Positions 13,023 through 23,622 of a stretch of DNA of 24,424 nt are shown here, piece after piece. The notes beneath the pieces are model-generated. The model worked only from the letters and a program-made list of their open reading frames with translations, searched no databases and was not told where the DNA came from. The DNA comes from a virus. A program made the position numbers and the translations under genes. The stretch lies in the UHGV virus genome UHGV-0281096, one strand, 5' to 3'. The stretch's first letter is position 1; the number at the start of each line of letters is the position of its first letter.

Positions 13023-13464
13023 TCTCGTTCTAAAGGCTTTACGAAAAGCCGGGCTGTATTCCAATGCCACGTTGATAGATGCCGACCCTCAGGCAATTGA
13101 AGATGCTATTAATGACCTCGAAGACATGATGGCAGCATGGCAGGCGAAAGGTATCGAGCTTGGATATCAGTTTGCTGATACAGAAAACGGCATCATGCCG
13201 TTACCTGACGATGATTCAGGTATCCCTGCATGGGCAAATGATGGCGTCGCTTTGAAACTCGCTGTGCAAGTGTGCATGGATAACGTCATTCAGCCGTCGG
13301 ATGCTCTCCTTACCGCTGCTGACAGCACATATCAGACAATCTGCATCGCTTTAACCAAAATACCACCACTTGAGCGACGAAATGACATGCCTCGCGGGGC
13401 GGGGTTAAAAAGCGCGTTTACGTGGAATCGGTTTTACATCGAGAAAGATGATCCGAGTACGTGA
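13003..13464 (+). CDS. gp4-like head completion / tail adaptor protein
   Basis: 153 aa; MAKTKGDLVLKALRKAGLYSNATLIDADPQAIEDAINDLEDMMAAW resembles P22 gp4 N-terminus as recalled. Confidence 0.8.
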   Translation: MAKTKGDLVLKALRKAGLYSNATLIDADPQAIEDAINDLEDMMAAWQAKGIELGYQFADTENGIMPLPDDDSGIPAWANDGVALKLAVQVCMDNVIQPSDALLTAADSTYQTICIALTKIPPLERRNDMPRGAGLKSAFTWNRFYIEKDDPST

Positions 13465-13473
13465 GGTGAATAA

Positions 13474-14892
13474 ATGCCGATTCAGCAACTTCCGCTTATG
13501 AAAGGTGTCGGCAAAGACTTTCGAAACGCCGACTATATCGACTATCTGCCAGTGAATATGCTGGCTACGCCCAAAGAAATACTCAACAGCAGCGGATATC
13601 TTCGCTCATTCCCGGGCATTGCCAAACGTTCTGATGTGAACGGCGTATCGCGGGGCGTCGAGTACAACATGGCGCAGAATGCTGTTTATCGCGTATGTGG
13701 TGGTAAGCTGTACAAAGGAGAAAGTGAAGTCGGTGACGTCGCCGGAAGTGGTCGCGTATCAATGGCGCATGGTCGAACATCACAGGCGGTAGGCGTTAAT
13801 GGTCAACTGGTCGAATACCGCTATGATGGCACGGTTAAAACCGTCTCAAACTGGCCTACAGACAGCGGATTCACGCAGTATGAGTTAGGCTCAGTCCGCG
13901 ACATTACGCGCTTGCGTGGGCGTTATGCGTGGTCAAAAGACGGCACTGATTCATGGTTTATCACTGACCTTGAAGACGAATCGTATCCTGACCGTTACAG
14001 CGCACAATATCGCGCAGAATCTCAGCCGGACGGCATCATCGGCATCGGAACATGGCGAGACTTCATCGTCTGCTTTGGCTCATCGACGATTGAATATTTC
14101 TCCCTGACGGGTGCAACCACTGTTGGTGCCGCTTTGTATGTCGCCCAGCCATCGTTGATGGTGCAAAAAGGAATCGCCGGAACCTACTGCAAAACGCCGT
14201 TTGCTGATTCGTATGCGTTCATCAGCAATCCGGCAACAGGTGCGCCGTCTGTTTACATCATCGGCTCCGGTCAGGTATCACCAATCGCCAGCGCGAGCAT
14301 TGAGAAAATCCTCCGCTCCTACACTGCTGATGAACTGGCTGATGGCGTGATGGAGTCTCTGCGCTTTGATGCTCATGAGTTGCTGATTATCCACCTTCCG
14401 CGCCATGTTCTCGTGTACGACGCATCTTCAAGCGCCAATGGTCCGCAATGGTGTGTGCTGAAAACAGGCTTGTATGACGATGTGTACCGCGCTATCGACT
14501 TCATTTACGAAGGCAATCAGATAACGTGCGGAGATAAGCTGGAATCGGTTATCGGCAAATTGCAGTTCGATATCAGCAGCCAGTATGGGCTACAGCAAGA
14601 ACACCTGTTGTTTACACCACTCTTCAAAGCTGAGAACGCCAGATGTTTTGATCTGGAAGTTGAATCATCGACTGGTGTCGCTCAGTACGCTGACCGCCTG
14701 TTCCTCTCTGCAACCACTGACGGCATCAATTGGGGAAAAGAGCAGATGATTGAGCAGAATGAACCGTTCGTTTACGACAAACGCGTTTTGTGGAAGCGAG
14801 TAGGGCGCATCAGGAAAAATGTCGGCTTCAAATTGCGCGTTATCACGAAGTCACCTGTCACTCTGTCTGGCGCTCAGATAAGGATCGAGTAA
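13474..14892 (+). CDS. gp10-like tail hub protein
   Basis: 472 aa; close to P22 gp10 along most of its length as recalled. Confidence 0.85.
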
Positions 14893-16750: not shown

Positions 16751-18100
16751 ATGGCTACGTGGCAACAGGGTATTAATTCTGGTGGTTTTCTGACTGGAAT
16801 TGGTGCGCAAAATGAGAATGCGCCAAAGGCAAGCGACATTAACGCAACGCTTGGTCTGATTCGCGAAAACAATGAACTGGCTCGATCAGGTGCAAATAAC
16901 GTTGGTCTGACCGCGTTACGTGGTCTGGCTGGAGTTGCTGATATTTACAATCAGGAACAGCAACAGAAAGCTATTAGTGCGTTCAATAAGGTTCACGCTG
17001 ATGCATGGGCTTCTGGTGATCCATCGGGACTATTTAAGTTTGCCCAGGAAAATCCAGCGTTTGTTGCACAGGCACAACAGGCGTTTTCCGGTCTTAATGA
17101 GCAGCAACGCAACGATATGGGCGATTTAGCCATGAGGGCTAACGTCGCTCTTTCTCAGGGACCGGAAGCCTACAGTAAATTCATTACTGACAACAAGGAC
17201 AGGTTAAATCGCGTGGGGGCGAATGCTGATTGGATGATTCAGACAGGTATCCAGAATCCAGAGCAGCTATCACACATGCTGACTACTATGTCTCTCGGTG
17301 CGCTTGGACCAGAAAAGGCGTTTGCTGTTCAGGACAAGATGGTTGGTCGCCAGCAGGAGCAGCAAAGAATTAACGAAACCATTCGCAATAATGACATGAC
17401 GAATGCGAGGGCTATTAGGGGGCAGGATCTTTCCTATAAGGCTCAAATGGCAAGACTGAATCACGACAAGTATGTGTTTAAGCAGTCACAGGCGGCCCTT
17501 GAAAGAGCAGGACAACTTCAGGATATGGATGTTTTGTCTCTTAACTCACAGATAGCAGCGACGGGAATTGATCCTCTAACCGGTAAAGCTGCAACGTCAG
17601 CCAGAATGTCTCAGGCTAAGAGATGGCTTGATGGCAACCATAATTACAACAATGCGTTGATTACTGGTGAGCGAGGGATAGAGAAAATAGATTCTTTGCT
17701 TGGTAAGAAGGAGCTTGAAGGTATCGGTCGCTTCGAAGGAAGAAATATAGATGGCTTCACAAGTGCTGAAGGGCTTGCAAACCGTAATGCGATAGAAGAA
17801 TTAAAGTCGGGTGCGTTTGTCCAGAACGTGCAGATTATGCGAGGTATGGGGAGCCTCTCCAATGCTGAAGGCCAAAAACTGGAAAACCTGATCGCGAAAC
17901 TCGATATAACACAGCCTGAAGAGGTCGTCAGAAAACAGTTATCTGAAATCCGATCGCAATATTCTGTATTTCAAAAGGTTGCAGCAAGGGAGGCTGAATC
18001 AATGGGATATAGTTCATCAGGTTATGACACATATGTTAGTGAGCGAAAATCAGGAAGCGACAGCAATAAGTCCGGTTTCTCGTCTTTATGGGGTGATTAA
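16751..18100 (+). CDS. Ejection protein gp20-like
   Basis: 449 aa; synteny and composition. Confidence 0.75.
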
Positions 18101-20268
18101 TGGCTAAAGCATGGAAAGATGTTATCGCTTCTCCACAGTATCAGGCGTTAACTGAAGAACAGAAAGCACAGGCTCAAGCGCAATATTTTGATGAGGTTGT
18201 TGCCCCTAAGGCTGGTGACAAATGGGCTGAAGCAAGAGATCAGTTTTATGCAGCATACCCTCCGCCTCAGCAGCAGAAAGAAGAACCATCATTGATGCAA
18301 CAAGCTGGTGATTGGCTCACAGGTGGTCAAAGTGCAGGGCAAATTGCAGAACAGGCTGGTCGTGGTCTGGTAAACATACCATTTGACGTATTGCAGGGTG
18401 GCGCAAGTCTGATTAATGCAATCAGCCAGGGGCTTGGCGGCCCCAAGGTTTTGGATGATGTTTATCGCCCTGCCGAGCGACCGACAGACCCTTACGCGCA
18501 AGCCGGTGAAACAATTGGTGGGTATCTCCTGCCAATTGGCACAGCGGCAAAAGCTGCTGGAGCGACAGCAAAGCTCGCTGGAGATATCGGTTCCGCCGGA
18601 AACATGATTGCAGGTTCTCTTGCTGATGCTGCAAATCAGGAGGGCGATTTTGCACAAAATGCTGCCATTAACGGTGGTATCAATATTGGTGCTCAGGGGA
18701 TACTTTCTGGGGCTGGAAGGATCTTAACCTCTAAATCACCTCAAGTTCTTGGTGGCGGGGCAATAAATTCCGCTGCTGATGTTTCGAAAATGGCAAAGTC
18801 TGGTACAGGAAGAGAGATTATTGCCAGACAGTCAGCTAATGTGTCAGACGAAATAGCAAAAGCAGCAGATACTGCTGGAATAGATATCAACGCATTAACT
18901 CCTGGCATGAGATCAGGTAGTCGTGGTCTTGCTCAGGCGGAGGGGATTCTGGCGTCAAAGCCCGGAATTACACAGGATGCACACACCAAAGCATTCAGTG
19001 AAATAGAGTCGAAATTTAACTCAGCATTGGATGAGTTTGGGGCTGAAGCAGGAACTGCATCAGAAAAAAGTGCAGCCATAAAACAAAGGGTTTTGGCAAG
19101 TATTGATAAAATGAAAAATTCAGAAAAGGCCGCATGGGATAGCGTCCGCTCCACGATGCCTGACGCAAAGGCCAGAATGTCAAACCTGAACGCTACAATT
19201 CAGGGTGATATTTTGGCCGGCATGCCGCTAACTCCTGAGATGAAACAATTCGCATCTGCTTATGCTAAAACTAGTAAAAAAGGAATCACGTTTGATGCCA
19301 TGAAGGCATGGCGAAGTAAACTTGCTGACGCAGAGCAGAAGTATATAAGGTCTGGTGAGGCAAATACGGCAAGGCGCATGGCTGAGCTTCGTGATGCAGC
19401 AACGGAAGATATGCGCATAATGGCTCAAAATGGCGGTTTTCTTGATGACTGGCAAAAAGCTAATGATCTGTCAAAAGCAAGATTTACAGCACAAGAACAG
19501 GCTGAAGCAGCGTTTGGTAGAGACCTTGCAACTGATCAGTTGGTAACTAATGGCTCTAAGGCGTTGCAGGGTTCAGCAAAAAGTGGAACAGGTCAGTTCC
19601 ATAAAATAATAAGCGCCCTACCTGAGTCGGAACGCGCGCCAGCAATTGCATCAATATTACAAGATGCGGTATCGCAAGGGGTACGCGGAGGTAAGTCTGA
19701 AGAGGCTGGAATTAAGCATATCGCGACTATTCTTACCCCACAAAACGTGAAGGCAATTAGTCGATATTCTCCAGAGCTTGGTAGGATTGCCAGGGGGTTT
19801 GGAGAACTTGCAAGAGCAGCAACAAAGCCACTTCGATATGTTGAACAAACAGGGCGCTCTATGCCAGCCATTAGCACTCTTGAGAATGGCCTTCATCCAG
19901 TTTTAGAGAGCGTATTGTCTGGCGCTTTTCCAACCGCTGGCGCTATCGCAGGGTTCTCTGGAGGAGGTGTTATTGGAGCAATAGTGGGTGGCGCTGCAGG
20001 TGGAGCAATTGATGCAATAGCAAAAGGATCGATAGCGAAATTATCCGCAACCAGAAGTGGTCGTTACGCTATTGAAAAGGCTGTTCAAGAGGCGACAAAG
20101 GCAGTTAAAGTTGGGGCAAGTGATGGCGCATTAGCGGCGGCGGAACGCAGATTTATGGCAAATAAGGCCGCCGTAAAAGCAATTCGCGATGCACTAGGAA
20201 ACGAAGAGTTCCAGCGTTTGTCGAGGGCTGGGATTGTGGCATCGCTAAGCGGAATGGCACAGGATTGA
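18100..20268 (+). CDS. Ejection protein gp16-like
   Basis: 722 aa; last of three ejection genes; Gly/Ala-rich C-terminal segment ([36 protein letters not shown]). Confidence 0.7.
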
Positions 20269-20285
20269 GGTGACGCCATGGATGG

Positions 20286-20735
20286 CTATTTTTTAAGGTA
20301 ATAATCATCAAAATCGCAAGAAGCGGATATCACAGAACTTGAATCCATAGAAAAAGACAGGGTTTCGCATGCCTTTCCGGCCTGATGATATGCATGGATA
20401 TCACCGGATACATATCCTCCTGTAGAAAACAACGATTTTTCACCGTTTTTTTCTACAAGAATGTGCTTATCTGAATCATTAATAAACCAAATGGAAATAG
20501 AGTGACTTTCGCCAAGGTCTGTTCTATTGAACACCTTAGGTTGGGTACCCTTGACAGCATTTTCGGCTCGCATAATCAGTTCAGCGCTTTTTTTGCTATT
20601 TTTTTGTTCTGTATAGATTTTGTCTGCCACAAAATAAACAATGGCAATGGCTAACAAAGATAGGGAAATCAGCAATGCCTTTTTAATCAATTTTTTGGCA
20701 TCCCTGTAAATCTCAACTGATAATTTTTCACTCAC
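20286..20735 (-). CDS. Membrane-anchored protein of unknown function (candidate superinfection-exclusion-type moron)
   Basis: Minus-strand ORF; likely start GTG at 20735 with AAGGAGG 5 nt upstream (track ATG 20789 has no RBS); single N-terminal TM segment ALLISLSLLAIAIVYFVADKIY; about 110-aa C-terminal domain with two Cys; locally AT-rich. Confidence 0.5.
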   Translation of the reverse strand: MSEKLSVEIYRDAKKLIKKALLISLSLLAIAIVYFVADKIYTEQKNSKKSAELIMRAENAVKGTQPKVFNRTDLGESHSISIWFINDSDKHILVEKNGEKSLFSTGGYVSGDIHAYHQAGKACETLSFSMDSSSVISASCDFDDYYLKK

Positions 20736-20810
20736 ACCAACCTCCTTAGTTTTGAGCAGGATACCAGATGATGTATGGAGAGGCATCATCTACTGGTGAT
20801 AGAACGATGA

Positions 20811-20839
20811 TTGCAGATTGATATTACGATCTGTACACT
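20811..20839 (+). promoter_or_regulatory. Candidate sigma70 promoter for the toxin-antitoxin-like operon
   Basis: TTGCAG - 17 nt - TACACT about 30 nt upstream of ATG 20872; moderate match only. Confidence 0.3.
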
Positions 20840-20871
20840 TCCAGTAGAACCGTGTGTTCTCTGGAGGCGAT

Positions 20872-21525
20872 ATGGACAACATCTACATAGCTAGTTTTGG
20901 TGATATAGACATTCGTTTTGTTAATGTCGACGATGATGTGTTTGTGTCTCAAGGGGATTTTGTCCGTGCAATGGAGTCGTGTCTCACTGATGATATGAAA
21001 CACATAGCTGGTATTTTCATCAGTGGTGGTGTGAGAATTGTTGGCGATTCTAGTGATAGCCGCTCTGCAATACTTGGCGACAGTCTAATTGGGCCAGCTA
21101 TTCATTTTCATGCGGTAGGCAATATTCTTACCTCATTGGTTGAAATGAGTAATGAGGAAAACCCCTCTTTAAGAGAGAGTTGTTATCGCATGAATAGCTT
21201 ATTGCAGTGGTACACGATAGCTTTATCCAAGGCCGATGAGTATTTTGGTCGTGATGTTGTTGACTTGCTATCTTCAGTAAAAAGGCGTCTTGATCGACTT
21301 AACGCTCCATATACCGTAAACGTCCTTCATGATGGGGGTGTTTGGGTTGCAACATGCGATGAGCTTGGATTAGTTACAGAAGCTCCAGATTATGAATCTC
21401 TTACTGAAAGAGTGTGGGATGTCGCTGGAGATATGCTGGTTGAGAATGGTATAGATCAAGACGTAGAAAGCCTGCGCTTTTCCTTCGTTCAGGAGCAGGT
21501 GTCTGATGACAGGATGGCGCTATAA
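20872..21525 (+). CDS. Two-domain protein: N-terminal Bro-N-like domain fused to C-terminal HicB-fold (UPF0150) antitoxin-like domain
   Basis: ATG 20872 with GGAGG upstream; N-terminus IASFGDIDIRFVNVDDDVFVSQGDFVRAM resembles Bro-N pattern; C-terminal YTVNVLHDGGVWVATCDELGLVTEAPDYESLTERVWDVAGDML fits HicB N-domain pattern. Confidence 0.6.
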   Translation: MDNIYIASFGDIDIRFVNVDDDVFVSQGDFVRAMESCLTDDMKHIAGIFISGGVRIVGDSSDSRSAILGDSLIGPAIHFHAVGNILTSLVEMSNEENPSLRESCYRMNSLLQWYTIALSKADEYFGRDVVDLLSSVKRRLDRLNAPYTVNVLHDGGVWVATCDELGLVTEAPDYESLTERVWDVAGDMLVENGIDQDVESLRFSFVQEQVSDDRMAL

Positions 21526-21528
21526 GAA

Positions 21529-21726
21529 ATGGGGCAGGGGCTTTATCCAGAACTGAAAGAGTTATTGTTGTCCTACAACTGTTATTTTGTGCGTCAGGGT
21601 AAAGGTAGCCATGAGATATGGCGAAGCCCTATCACGAAAAAGGCATTTAGCGTTCCATTTACTATAGTTTCAAGGCATACGGCTAACGCAATTCTTCGCC
21701 AGGCAGGAATAAACAAGAAAATTTAA
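21529..21726 (+). CDS. HicA-family toxin (predicted mRNA interferase)
   Basis: 65 aa; ELKELLLSYNCYFVRQGKGSHEIWRSPITKKAFSVP...ANAILRQAGI matches HicA/YcfA-like consensus including conserved GSH; starts 3 nt after upstream stop. Confidence 0.7.
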   Translation: MGQGLYPELKELLLSYNCYFVRQGKGSHEIWRSPITKKAFSVPFTIVSRHTANAILRQAGINKKI

Positions 21727-21781: not shown

Positions 21782-21967
21782 ATGACCATAGAAGAACGTC
21801 TGAACAACATTGAGTTGAATCAAACCCTGCTTGACCAGCGACTTTCAGATCTTGAGCTTAAAGATCTAGATGTGCAAATATCAGAAGCAGAAGCCAAGCT
21901 CTCCAGCTTAAACCACCGCAGGAAGCAAATCCGCGACAGAATTACTCGTGGACGCGGAGGCTGTTAA
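21782..21967 (+). CDS. Small coiled-coil protein, unknown function
   Basis: 61 aa; AAGGA RBS; heptad-like Leu spacing, basic C-terminus ending GRGGC. Confidence 0.4.
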   Translation: MTIEERLNNIELNQTLLDQRLSDLELKDLDVQISEAEAKLSSLNHRRKQIRDRITRGRGGC

Positions 21968-22044: not shown

Positions 22045-22581
22045 TCAAACAACCCACCAGTTTGCCTGATTGGATACCAGCCTTGCAGTTTTTATGGAAT
22101 TAATTATGCCATGCTCAAGAGCCTTGTTAGCATCCAAAATGGTCGAGTCTGCTATCAGGGATGCCCACCTAATATGGGTTCCGATGTCGATATTGAACGT
22201 CTCAACGAAGCGATCAAGATCGTTATCGAGGCATTTCCCGTACTCTCTCAATCTGGCATGGTCGGCGGCTGGGGAGGCAAAGCACCATAATAGAGGATGT
22301 AACAGGAATCTTGATAATGGGTTTGCGAAACGTTCTGAGCCAGCCAGGAAAACGATATTAGCTATGGATTCAACATTGCTTATGTTGTGAGTTCTAACGG
22401 TAACAGGGAGTGACTTAAGAAAGTTATACGCAGTAAAGCCAGCGGCAGTTTCCCCTCCCTGACTTGATATATGGATATTTAATTCAGTTGCGCCTTGAGA
22501 TAATGCGGTGAGACAGTGGTTCTGAAGTTGCCCAACAGTGGCAGTGTTAACGGGGCATAAGAAATGAATTGTGTGCAGCAT
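22045..22581 (-). CDS. ClpP-fold (S14-like) serine peptidase
   Basis: 178 aa; hand alignment to E. coli ClpP core: IHISSQGGETAAG vs YINSPGGVITAG, ESIANIVFLAG vs ASMGAFLLTAG (Ser), FLLHPL vs MIHQPL (His), ADSTILDANKALEHG vs RDRFLSAPEAVEYG (Asp); TAATG overlap with mnt stop. Confidence 0.7.
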   Translation of the reverse strand: MLHTIHFLCPVNTATVGQLQNHCLTALSQGATELNIHISSQGGETAAGFTAYNFLKSLPVTVRTHNISNVESIANIVFLAGSERFANPLSRFLLHPLLWCFASPAADHARLREYGKCLDNDLDRFVETFNIDIGTHIRWASLIADSTILDANKALEHGIINSIKTARLVSNQANWWVV

Positions 22582-22835
22582 TATTTATCATCCTTGCCAT
22601 AAATCTTTTTAAGTGTCTCAAACACAACGGCCTTGAACTGCTCTGCTTGCTGATCAGCCAAGCGTTCAGCTTCGTCTCGATAGCCTGCACTCGGTGATGG
22701 CTTTGAGAGAGCATCCTGAACGATTTGTAATAACTCAGAGTTCATTGACCTTCCGTTAGCCTCTGCTCTTAATTTCAATTTTTCTCTTACTTCCAAAGGC
22801 ATACGGAAGTTAAAGTGCGGATCGTCTCTAGCCAT
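22581..22835 (-). CDS. mnt: Mnt repressor (Arc/MetJ ribbon-helix-helix)
   Basis: 84 aa MARDDPHFNFRMPLEVREKLKLRAEANGRSMNSELLQIVQDAL... very close to P22 Mnt as recalled. Confidence 0.85.
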   Translation of the reverse strand: MARDDPHFNFRMPLEVREKLKLRAEANGRSMNSELLQIVQDALSKPSPSAGYRDEAERLADQQAEQFKAVVFETLKKIYGKDDK

Positions 22836-22858
22836 GCCATCACTCCAAGTTAGTATCT

Positions 22859-23116
22859 CTAACTTTCGTCTTTATTGTTGCTATACATGCATTTCAACTT
22901 CTCAACATCATGTTCAAGATCTATCAATCGTGATGCTATAGTTGCAAGGTCTAGTGCTTGAATGTGTTTATTTTTTTCGGTCCATGCTTCAAGTGCCGCG
23001 ACCATCTCAGCATTTAATGAACGAGAATTAGCCTCAGCCAGTTCAATAAGACGTTCCTTTATCTCTACAGGAAGCCTCAGATTCACTTGAGGGTTTTTGT
23101 ACTTACGATCAGACAT
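22859..23116 (-). CDS. Arc/Mnt-family RHH protein, paralog 2
   Basis: Start ATG 23116 (M3 of track ORF); PQVNLRLPVEIKERLIELAEANSRSLNAEMV is an RHH motif; divergent helical C-terminal region. Confidence 0.65.
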   Translation of the reverse strand: MSDRKYKNPQVNLRLPVEIKERLIELAEANSRSLNAEMVAALEAWTEKNKHIQALDLATIASRLIDLEHDVEKLKCMYSNNKDES

Positions 23117-23133
23117 CGGCACATCCTGAATAA

Positions 23134-23373
23134 TTATTTACCATACATGGTCTTTAGCGTCTCAAGTAGCGCCTCTTTGAATTTATCAGCTTCTTGGTTA
23201 GCGAATCCTTCAAGTGAGCGAGAGCCATCAAGATTATCAACATGTTTTTGAAGGATAAGCACGATCTCTGAGTTCATTGATCTGCCGTTTTTATCCGCTT
23301 CTTGCTGAATGCGTTTCTTTAAATAGTCTGGAATCCTAATCCCCAATGGACTGATATCTCTTGCACCTTTCAT
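23134..23373 (-). CDS. Chimeric RHH repressor: Arc-like N-terminus with Mnt-like C-terminus
   Basis: Start ATG 23373 with AGGAGG 5 nt upstream; N-terminus MKGARDISPLGIRIPDYLKKRIQQEADKNGRSMNSEIV parallels the arc product; C-terminus GFANQEADKFKEALLETLKTMYGK parallels Mnt C-terminus. Confidence 0.7.
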   Translation of the reverse strand: MKGARDISPLGIRIPDYLKKRIQQEADKNGRSMNSEIVLILQKHVDNLDGSRSLEGFANQEADKFKEALLETLKTMYGK

Positions 23374-23481
23374 TTCTCCTCCTGCACGCTGTGCATAGCT
23401 ACACAGTGTAGGCAAAAAAATTTTGACTTTAAATAAACACGGTGTAGTATTTAGTTATCACGGTGTAGCAAGTGAGGGGAA
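23374..23481. promoter_or_regulatory. Divergent Pant/Pmnt-like promoter-operator region
   Basis: TTGACT (23423-23428) - 16/17 nt - TAGTAT; direct repeats CACGGTGTAG at 23438-23447 and 23459-23468, degenerate copy CACAGTGTAG 23402-23411; imperfect palindrome CTGTGCATAGCTACACAG 23389-23406. Confidence 0.45.
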
Positions 23482-23622
23482 ATGAAAGTTAGAGACATCG
23501 CTCCATTAGGGATTCGTATCCCGCCAGAGATTAAAGAAAAATTGAAGGAAAAGGCTAAGGAGGAGGGCAGGTCTTTAAATTCAGAAATAGTGCAGCGTCT
23601 TATTCGCAGCCTAAAAAGTTGA
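23482..23622 (+). CDS. arc: Arc-like repressor (RHH)
   Basis: Not in ORF track (<60 aa). Hand translation [46 protein letters not shown]; GAGGGGA RBS; same family as P22 Arc, sequence diverged. Confidence 0.7.

Follow-up and report, generated by a model that had tools for sequence, protein, structure and literature searches.

A single-pass membrane protein family with a predicted periplasmic beta-barrel in the sieA cassette slot of P22-like prophages

The stretch of viral DNA analysed here (24,424 nucleotides, termed 'the window') carries a small reverse-strand gene next to the gene for a gp16-type ejection protein, and is referred to below as containing the sieA-slot gene (Table 1). The sieA-slot gene and gp16 are convergent, their stop codons being 17 nt apart, and on its other side the gene is divergent from a DUF1902/HicB-like gene that is directly followed by a HicA toxin gene; both orientations had been described in a first-pass annotation of this DNA and were confirmed from the ORF layout. 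The convergent neighbour gp16 is conserved, and the cassette slot defined below is bounded on that side by the 3′ end of gp16. The divergent intergenic region is presumed to hold the promoter, and a promoter and terminator scan found no minus-strand match, including no sigma-70 consensus. The DUF1902 match of the 223-aa HicB-like protein is limited to residues 153-214, its first ~150 residues gave no Pfam match, and the GTG start of its gene is uncertain.

Table 1. Coordinates of the sieA-slot gene, its parts and its neighbours in the window.
Feature	Coordinates	Strand	Remarks
gp16-type ejection (DNA transfer) protein	18100..20268	+	722 aa; phrog_770 'DNA transfer protein', E 4e-216
Maximal ORF	20286..20789	-	167 aa from first ATG at 20789
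Most likely CDS, sieA-slot gene	20286..20735	-	149 aa, GTG start, 16.6 kDa; from PGAP, alignment and dN/dS
5′ extension of maximal ORF	20736..20789	-	Probably untranslated; overlaps the shared leader
Predicted periplasmic 8-stranded beta-barrel, residues 67-147	20295..20537	-	AlphaFold2 (AF2) model
Cys140 codon	20316..20318	-	Invariant
Cys123 codon	20367..20369	-	Invariant
Single TM helix, residues 20-38, predicted uncleaved signal-anchor	20622..20678	-	Kyte-Doolittle 2.34; helix in AF2 model
N-terminal segment, residues 1-19	20679..20735	-	Net positive; predicted cytoplasmic; Y10, D12 and K14 invariant
Conserved leader, GGTATCCTGCTCAAAACTAAGGAGGTTGGTGTG	20733..20765	-	33 nt; holds Shine-Dalgarno AAGGAGG (20741-20747) and GTG (20733-20735)
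Divergent intergenic region, sieA-slot gene / HicB-like gene	20766..20853	.	Presumed promoter region
DUF1902/HicB-like gene	20854..21525	+	Divergent from sieA-slot gene
HicA toxin gene	21529..21726	+	65 aa; directly after HicB-like gene

The maximal ORF begins with an ATG that had been taken as the start of the gene, but this appears to be 54 nt upstream of the real start, which is probably the GTG at 20735. The product would then be 149 rather than 167 aa long. PGAP calls, the alignment of homologues and a 54-nt leader common to unrelated genes all point to this GTG. Indeed a 149-aa product is what PGAP predicts for two genes, one in E. coli 20AR0300 that is identical and one in ExPEC XM that is 85% identical (each annotated as 'hypothetical protein'), and the Shine-Dalgarno sequence is placed 5 nt before this in-frame GTG. 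All of the distant homologues align from the residue encoded by the GTG, and three of them also have a GTG start after a Shine-Dalgarno sequence. The in-frame stretch that makes up the extension recurs before unrelated cargo genes, whilst the DNA above it is unrelated between loci. The gene was correctly described as AT-rich: the GC content of the CDS is 36.7%, compared with 48.3% for gp16 and 48.3% for the window as a whole.

No family match was found for the sieA-slot protein in Pfam, PHROGs, PADLOC or NCBIfam, and a sequence profile search of the PDB returned nothing relevant; the earlier remark that no family could be recognised therefore holds across these resources. Weak matches to ARM_CPL3 (E 0.044), Sigma_reg_N (E 0.07) and PsiE (E 0.09) fall around the TM segment and were treated as noise. 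A word-indexed search of 5.8 billion proteins recovered only three clusters of relatives, and an exhaustive HMMER search of 1.84 billion representatives recovered 13 clusters at 50% identity, the members of which are 146-174 aa long save for one fragment of 52 aa. Fourteen sequences align over their full length, with homologues down to 25% identity, and 11 positions are invariant (the initiator Met, Y10, D12, K14, A57, R71, W83, D87, G120, C123 and C140), whilst P66, D89, H91 and A119 are nearly so. When the window gene was compared with its E. coli and Salmonella relatives by the Nei-Gojobori method, dN/dS was 0.13-0.35 at dS up to 1.4; by region, values of 0.07-0.10 were obtained for the N-terminus, TM helix and stalk and of 0.18-0.43 for the C-terminal domain. 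The gene is real and under purifying selection. Its low GC content, and an annotation that reads only 'hypothetical protein', could be taken to mean a chance ORF or a functionless gene in decay, yet homologues that reach 25% identity together with these dN/dS values show it to be more than this; with some 13 clusters of full-length proteins of ~150 aa, a confident fold prediction from the family alignment and a strong Shine-Dalgarno sequence also to be accounted for, such a reading is scarcely credible.

The distribution of the gene is sparse. Of 5,426 complete E. coli genomes, 243 have the flanking sequences in common and five carry the gene, and none of 50,697 phage records was matched by the window protein or by two distant homologues in tblastn. 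Members of the family occur in E. coli and Salmonella, in a prophage of Proteus/Providencia-like type and in two further P22-like prophages (L127 and L131), which are distant from those of E. coli. Presence in only 5 of the 243 flank-sharing E. coli genomes, an orientation antisense to the late operon and a GC content well below that of the window are features of a moron, and point to independent transcription of the gene. Apart from the ejection gene the neighbours vary: the window has HicAB, both 20AR0300 and Salmonella have a Panacea-domain pair, ExPEC XM has YafO, and the IMG/VR contig L066 has a P63C protein. As these neighbours are not conserved, the sieA-slot gene is not part of the modules that they form; the position held by HicAB, the Panacea pair or YafO looks like a second variable slot beside the first. 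Beyond HicA, the window encodes a 61-aa ORF (21782-21967, plus strand; phrog_7586, E 1e-43) with a near-identical translation on L066 (2781-2966), and genes of equal length, compared by length only, are found at a comparable place in L001 (7819-8004) and L129 (5806-5991).

The protein had been described as having one N-terminal TM anchor followed by a domain of ~110 residues with two cysteines, and this architecture is borne out: there is one hydrophobic segment, followed by 111 residues, and the cysteines number exactly two, C123 and C140. The sequence of the TM region is without a lipobox and without a small residue at -3 of a possible cleavage site. AlphaFold2 supplied with only three close sequences gave an unusable model (pLDDT 62), and the run used was instead based on the 14-sequence alignment (mean pLDDT 87.1), which predicts a helix at residues 2-60 and then eight beta-strands (67-147). 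The predicted barrel contains the motifs W83-x3-D87-[ST]-D89-x-H91 and A119-G120-x2-C123. In 14 of 14 family members K+R exceeds D+E in the N-terminal flank, and in the distant members the flank after the TM helix is neutral or acidic. Because of this positive-inside bias and the invariant cysteine pair in the C-terminal domain, we infer an N-in/C-out signal-anchor with a periplasmic domain, in which the cysteines probably form a disulfide bond. The predicted barrel was compared with known structures using Foldseek: in the PDB nothing scored below E 0.08, and in BFVD there was one significant match, to the viral protein A0A6G5Y7X6 (E 2.9e-4, TM 0.62/0.66). As modelled, the fold is a generic one that gives no family membership and no mechanistic clue.

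An eight-stranded beta-barrel is common to the model and to the MliC/PliC proteins. The sieA-slot protein might be a lysogenic-conversion factor with no part in phage defence, for example a membrane-tethered, periplasmic PliC/MliC-like inhibitor of lysozyme or other muramidases that guards the lysogen in an animal host, or else a Spackle-like inhibitor of the murein hydrolase of incoming virions. In T4, Spackle inhibits a virion-borne murein hydrolase. The relationship to MliC does not extend to sequence: no Pfam match to the MliC family was found, its inhibitory-loop motifs are absent from the family alignment, and hhalign against E. coli MliC gave a probability of 0.8%, over the signal/TM region only. 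The mode of attachment also differs, as the sieA-slot protein is predicted to have a signal-anchor and a stalk helix and is found in a prophage, whereas PliC/MliC proteins have a lipobox or a cleaved signal peptide. A conversion factor of either kind is judged to be quite unlikely. A second barrel-bearing comparison is with the Cap15-type CBASS effectors, by analogy with which the TM helix and barrel would oligomerise and damage the inner membrane on infection, as an abortive-infection or otherwise toxic membrane effector. The Cap15 barrel is cytosolic, whereas charge bias and the invariant cysteine pair place the barrel of the sieA-slot protein in the periplasm. Furthermore, the Cap15 barrel is a cyclic-dinucleotide receptor (according to its PDB title), and in the contexts examined here there is no CD-NTase or other conserved signalling partner nearby, the only constant neighbour being the ejection-protein gene; PADLOC gave no match. 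We consider a Cap15-like effector to be very improbable.

The start codon of the sieA-slot gene forms the end of a 33-nt leader, GGTATCCTGC(N)CAAAACTAAGGAGGTTGGTGTG, which contains one variable base and is common to the window gene, its E. coli relatives, P22 sieA and a gene of quite another kind in E. coli 2018-10-1CC. The copies in the window and before P22 sieA are the same apart from the variable base, with the same Shine-Dalgarno sequence and GTG. In P22, gene 16 is immediately followed by sieA (13336..13830), which is read from the other strand, and the window gene is found in the same place. A segment within the leader, TGGTATCCT (20758-20766), resembles an extended -10 and may be a candidate element. 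A degenerate copy of the leader, CGGTGTTCTGCTCAAAACTAAGGAG, precedes the type B sieA of prophage HS1, which has an ATG start, and hence the leader predates the split between SieA types. This type B gene of the E. coli HS prophage (L135, 25463-26101, minus strand) encodes a protein of 212 aa with the motif FNRYPGEARKFNK. A role for the leader as a structured RNA was considered and rejected (fold z-score -1.0, no Rfam match). In the literature that was searched, the leader sequence was found only inside a sieA deletion primer; how variable the 'ant moron' region is had been noted in a general way in 2008 (PMC2629481).

When IMG/VR was scanned for the leader, at least 120 loci (L006-L125) were recovered; the cargo genes sampled behind the leader number 123. 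The ORFs that begin at the leader GTG belong to at least 12 families, none of which BLASTP relates to any other among the IMG/VR matches listed. Among these matches, the most frequent cargo is HkcB-like (as CUS-3 hkcB; TM plus coiled coil, at least 29), followed by a 129-aa signal-peptide protein (at least 25), a 62-aa two-TM protein (at least 11), SieA type A (at least 10 of 123), a 75-aa two-TM protein and another TM plus coiled-coil protein (at least nine each), the barrel family of the window (at least eight), a 140-aa protein without a hydrophobic segment (at least six) and four smaller membrane or secreted families (at least three to five each). An N-terminal hydrophobic segment is present in 11 of the 12 cargo families among the matches listed, in most cases as a membrane anchor or signal peptide. 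The DNA just above the leader is likewise diverse, with 11 unrelated types among the matches listed that combine freely with the cargo families; the barrel family alone is found with six of the 11. This free combination indicates that the leader is at once a translation-initiation region and a mosaic junction. Two leader cassettes lie in the same orientation on L066 (2340-2372 and 4105-4137), the first carrying the 129-aa signal-peptide protein and the second, at the end of the stretch, the barrel family, which means that cassettes can stack and need not replace each other. A comparison of the barrel family with the 129-aa signal-peptide family by hhalign was negative. The sieA-slot protein resembles HkcB (from HK620 and CUS-3) and the other cargo in its leader, start codon, orientation and gp16-adjacent position, whilst the sequences are unrelated, falling into 12 separate BLASTP families among the matches listed. 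HkcB itself, at 107-109 aa, consists of a TM segment plus a coiled coil, and has neither a beta domain nor a conserved cysteine pair.

SieA is the member of this cargo set with a demonstrated function, tested in PMC10883804, and it provides the closest comparison for the sieA-slot gene. Both genes occupy the slot after gene 16 on the opposite strand, with the leader, Shine-Dalgarno sequence and GTG of type A sieA, and they encode products of similar size (149 versus 164 aa). The window gene also fits the position described for SieA, being in a P22-like prophage, between homologues of gene 16 and gene 9 and next to gene 16; an inner-membrane location is predicted for the sieA-slot protein and demonstrated for SieA. 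The likeness ends at the level of the protein. BLASTP gave no alignment between the sieA-slot protein and P22 SieA, and the family profile was matched by hhalign with a probability of 0.4% to SieA type A and 0.3% to the type B protein of HS1. Three SieA types are described that agree in their TM predictions and in a cytoplasmic, C-terminal motif, FxRYPxEAxxFNK (PMC10883804); P22 and HS1 SieA contain the motif, and neither the family alignment nor any of the six reading frames of the window does. Hydrophobic windows above threshold number four in P22 SieA, compared with the one segment in the sieA-slot protein, and unlike SieA, which has three or four TM helices and little periplasmic mass, the sieA-slot protein is predicted to combine one TM helix with a periplasmic beta-barrel. 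As there is no BLASTP or profile similarity, the motif is absent and the number of TM helices is one rather than three or four, the sieA-slot protein appears from its sequence not to be a member of the SieA family (types A and B being those compared). It is the positional and regulatory equivalent of SieA.

The association of the barrel family with ejection genes extends beyond the leader. A family HMM identified 15 ORFs in the loci examined, and wherever sequence is present the next downstream gene is convergent, at a distance of 13-109 nt across the 15. The convergent partner is an ejection-protein gene in 14 of the 15, the remaining ORF being on a short contig where the neighbouring gene is cut off. 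In 13 cases the partner is a gp16 homologue (17-39 nt away), which may be of the window type, of the P22 type (74-75% identity to P22 gp16), of a divergent Proteus/Providencia-like type or an SLT-gp16 fusion, and in one case it is gp7 (109 nt away). The linkage spans 25-85% protein identity within the barrel family, and since it holds at 25-27% identity it is older than the leader. The fusion protein, encoded in L131 (6471-9155, minus strand), is a gp16 homologue of 894 aa in which an SLT lytic-transglycosylase domain (residues 51-155, E 7e-22) stands N-terminal to the gp16 body; this domain is absent from the gp16 proteins of the window and of P22. In three divergent prophages the barrel-family gene lies directly after mnt on the same strand, 19-37 nt away by gene calls, and the P22 annotation notes that mnt acts to maintain lysogeny; this proximity, together with the role of mnt, suggests that mnt and the barrel-family gene are co-transcribed in lysogens.

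Taken with its position, topology and neighbours, these features suggest that the product acts in exclusion or defence. The protein would be a bitopic inner-membrane protein with a basic N-terminus in the cytoplasm, one TM helix, a helical stalk and a disulfide-bonded, eight-stranded periplasmic barrel, the last of these held ~20 stalk residues above the inner membrane. Its gene, antisense to the late operon and abutting the 3′ end of gene 16 in the sieA cassette slot, would be translated from the same leader, Shine-Dalgarno sequence and weak GTG as P22 sieA, and the conserved GTG and sieA-type leader would fit low-level production in the lysogen. From here it could stop incoming P22-like phages from delivering their DNA, acting at the periplasm/inner-membrane step, with the barrel either binding the gp7/gp20/gp16 ejection conduit or filling a membrane site that the conduit needs, so that conduit assembly or membrane insertion would be disturbed. 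By analogy with SieA, we regard superinfection exclusion through such a conduit block, by a protein outside the SieA family, as about evenly balanced between true and false; expression in lysogens, topology and an exclusion function with its target are all deduced here.

Several observations argue for exclusion. The position and orientation are those of sieA, the leader, Shine-Dalgarno sequence and GTG are the same, the family is linked to ejection genes, and 11 of the 12 cargo families behind the leader (among the matches listed) carry a hydrophobic segment at the N-terminus. Directly beside the gene lie modules of the toxin-antitoxin or defence type (HicAB, Panacea, YafO), which differ from prophage to prophage, and a higher dN/dS in the barrel (0.18-0.43) than in the N-terminus and TM helix (0.07-0.10) would be expected for an arms-race interface. 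Against exclusion stand the lack of similarity to SieA types A and B, the failure of the promoter scan to find a minus-strand promoter and the finding of no phage isolate with the family. Guilt by position is also a weak guide, because SieA is the sole cargo member with a demonstrated function among the 12 families in the matches listed. The first-pass annotation had proposed that membrane proteins at this locus are typically superinfection-exclusion or host-modifying factors; the slot and leader of P22 sieA and the ejection-gene linkage make this argument from the locus much stronger, whilst 'typically' was an overstatement, with SieA making up 10 of the 123 listed cargo genes.

The nature of the target is a further point of comparison with SieA, for which escape mutations have been found in gp16 and gp20 and for which 85 bp of upstream DNA is enough for expression in P22 (PMC10883804). 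The masking of a host factor was raised as an alternative for SieA in the same study, and P22 was found to require YajC (PMC10883804). The sieA-slot protein might likewise exclude phages by masking an inner-membrane or periplasmic entry factor of the host (YajC or, for other phages, a sugar permease) rather than by contacting the ejection proteins, in which case its targets may extend beyond P22-like phages. The invariant cytoplasmic Y10-x-D12-x-K14 and the conserved TM helix suggest a membrane partner rather than a fast-evolving phage partner, and the barrel family is found with very different gp16 types. Strict linkage to the ejection gene is more easily explained by a functional tie to ejection, and would also be explained by simple inheritance of the slot. 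On balance the masking of a host factor is thought unlikely.

Similarity in design, if not in sequence, can be seen with exclusion proteins of other phages. HK97 gp15, lactococcal Sie2009, Streptococcus thermophilus Ltp, T4 Imm and Spackle are small exclusion proteins, single-pass or lipid-anchored at the cytoplasmic membrane, encoded by phages or prophages and expressed as morons; their functional part lies outside the cytoplasm, and they stop DNA from entering once the phage has adsorbed. They act on tape-measure proteins or the tail lysozyme and not on the ejection proteins of short-tailed phages. None is related in sequence to the sieA-slot protein (by Pfam, PHROGs and PADLOC), and the folds differ where they are known. 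The comparison with Ltp was drawn also from PMC3952083.

A broader and distinctly speculative reading, which we would rate as doubtful, is that the leader marks a hypervariable slot in which at least 12 families, nearly all of them envelope proteins and with SieA and the barrel family among them, are recombined as alternative blocks to entry; the barrel family would be the first to act from the periplasmic side, by capping or mis-assembling the gp20/gp16 conduit or by inhibiting the virion murein hydrolase. That prophage exclusion proteins are encoded at the sieA locus, and that the region is variable, was already known. What appear to be new are the presence in the sieA slot of a conserved family that differs in topology and has a predicted periplasmic barrel, the deep linkage of this family to ejection genes, and a single 33-nt leader before at least 12 unrelated cargo families.

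Little is yet understood of how the proteins ejected by short-tailed phages form a channel through the periplasm and the inner membrane, and SieA is, to our knowledge, so far the only genetic probe of this step. If the proposed exclusion by conduit block is correct, a second, structurally unrelated and mostly periplasmic protein in the sieA slot would offer an independent handle on DNA delivery, and the side of the gp20/gp16 conduit that faces the periplasm could be mapped through escape mutants. The soluble barrel would be a tractable binding partner for structural work, the leader provides a simple sequence tag for gathering candidate exclusion proteins from P22-like prophages, and the 12 cargo families form a set that can be tested side by side in the HK620, CUS-3, Sf6 and P22 systems. 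Such results would be useful to the fields of P22-type DNA delivery and prophage defence, and would not be startling.

Some further observations concern the immI/ant-moron region of the window. A minus-strand gene here (22045-22581) encodes a 178-aa ClpP-family protein (PF00574, E 2e-11; phrog_94 'head maturation protease'). There is a one-base overlap between the ATG of this gene and the stop codon of an Mnt-type repressor gene (22581-22835, minus strand). The overlap suggests that the two genes are translationally coupled, a ClpP-family protein being an odd partner for a repressor. The repressor gene falls within a run of three tandem Arc/Mnt-type ribbon-helix-helix genes (22581-23415, minus strand) that encode proteins of 84, 87 and 93 aa. 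Beyond them, on the plus strand, is an Arc-like gene (23482-23622); there are more Arc/Mnt-type repressor paralogues in the window than in P22.
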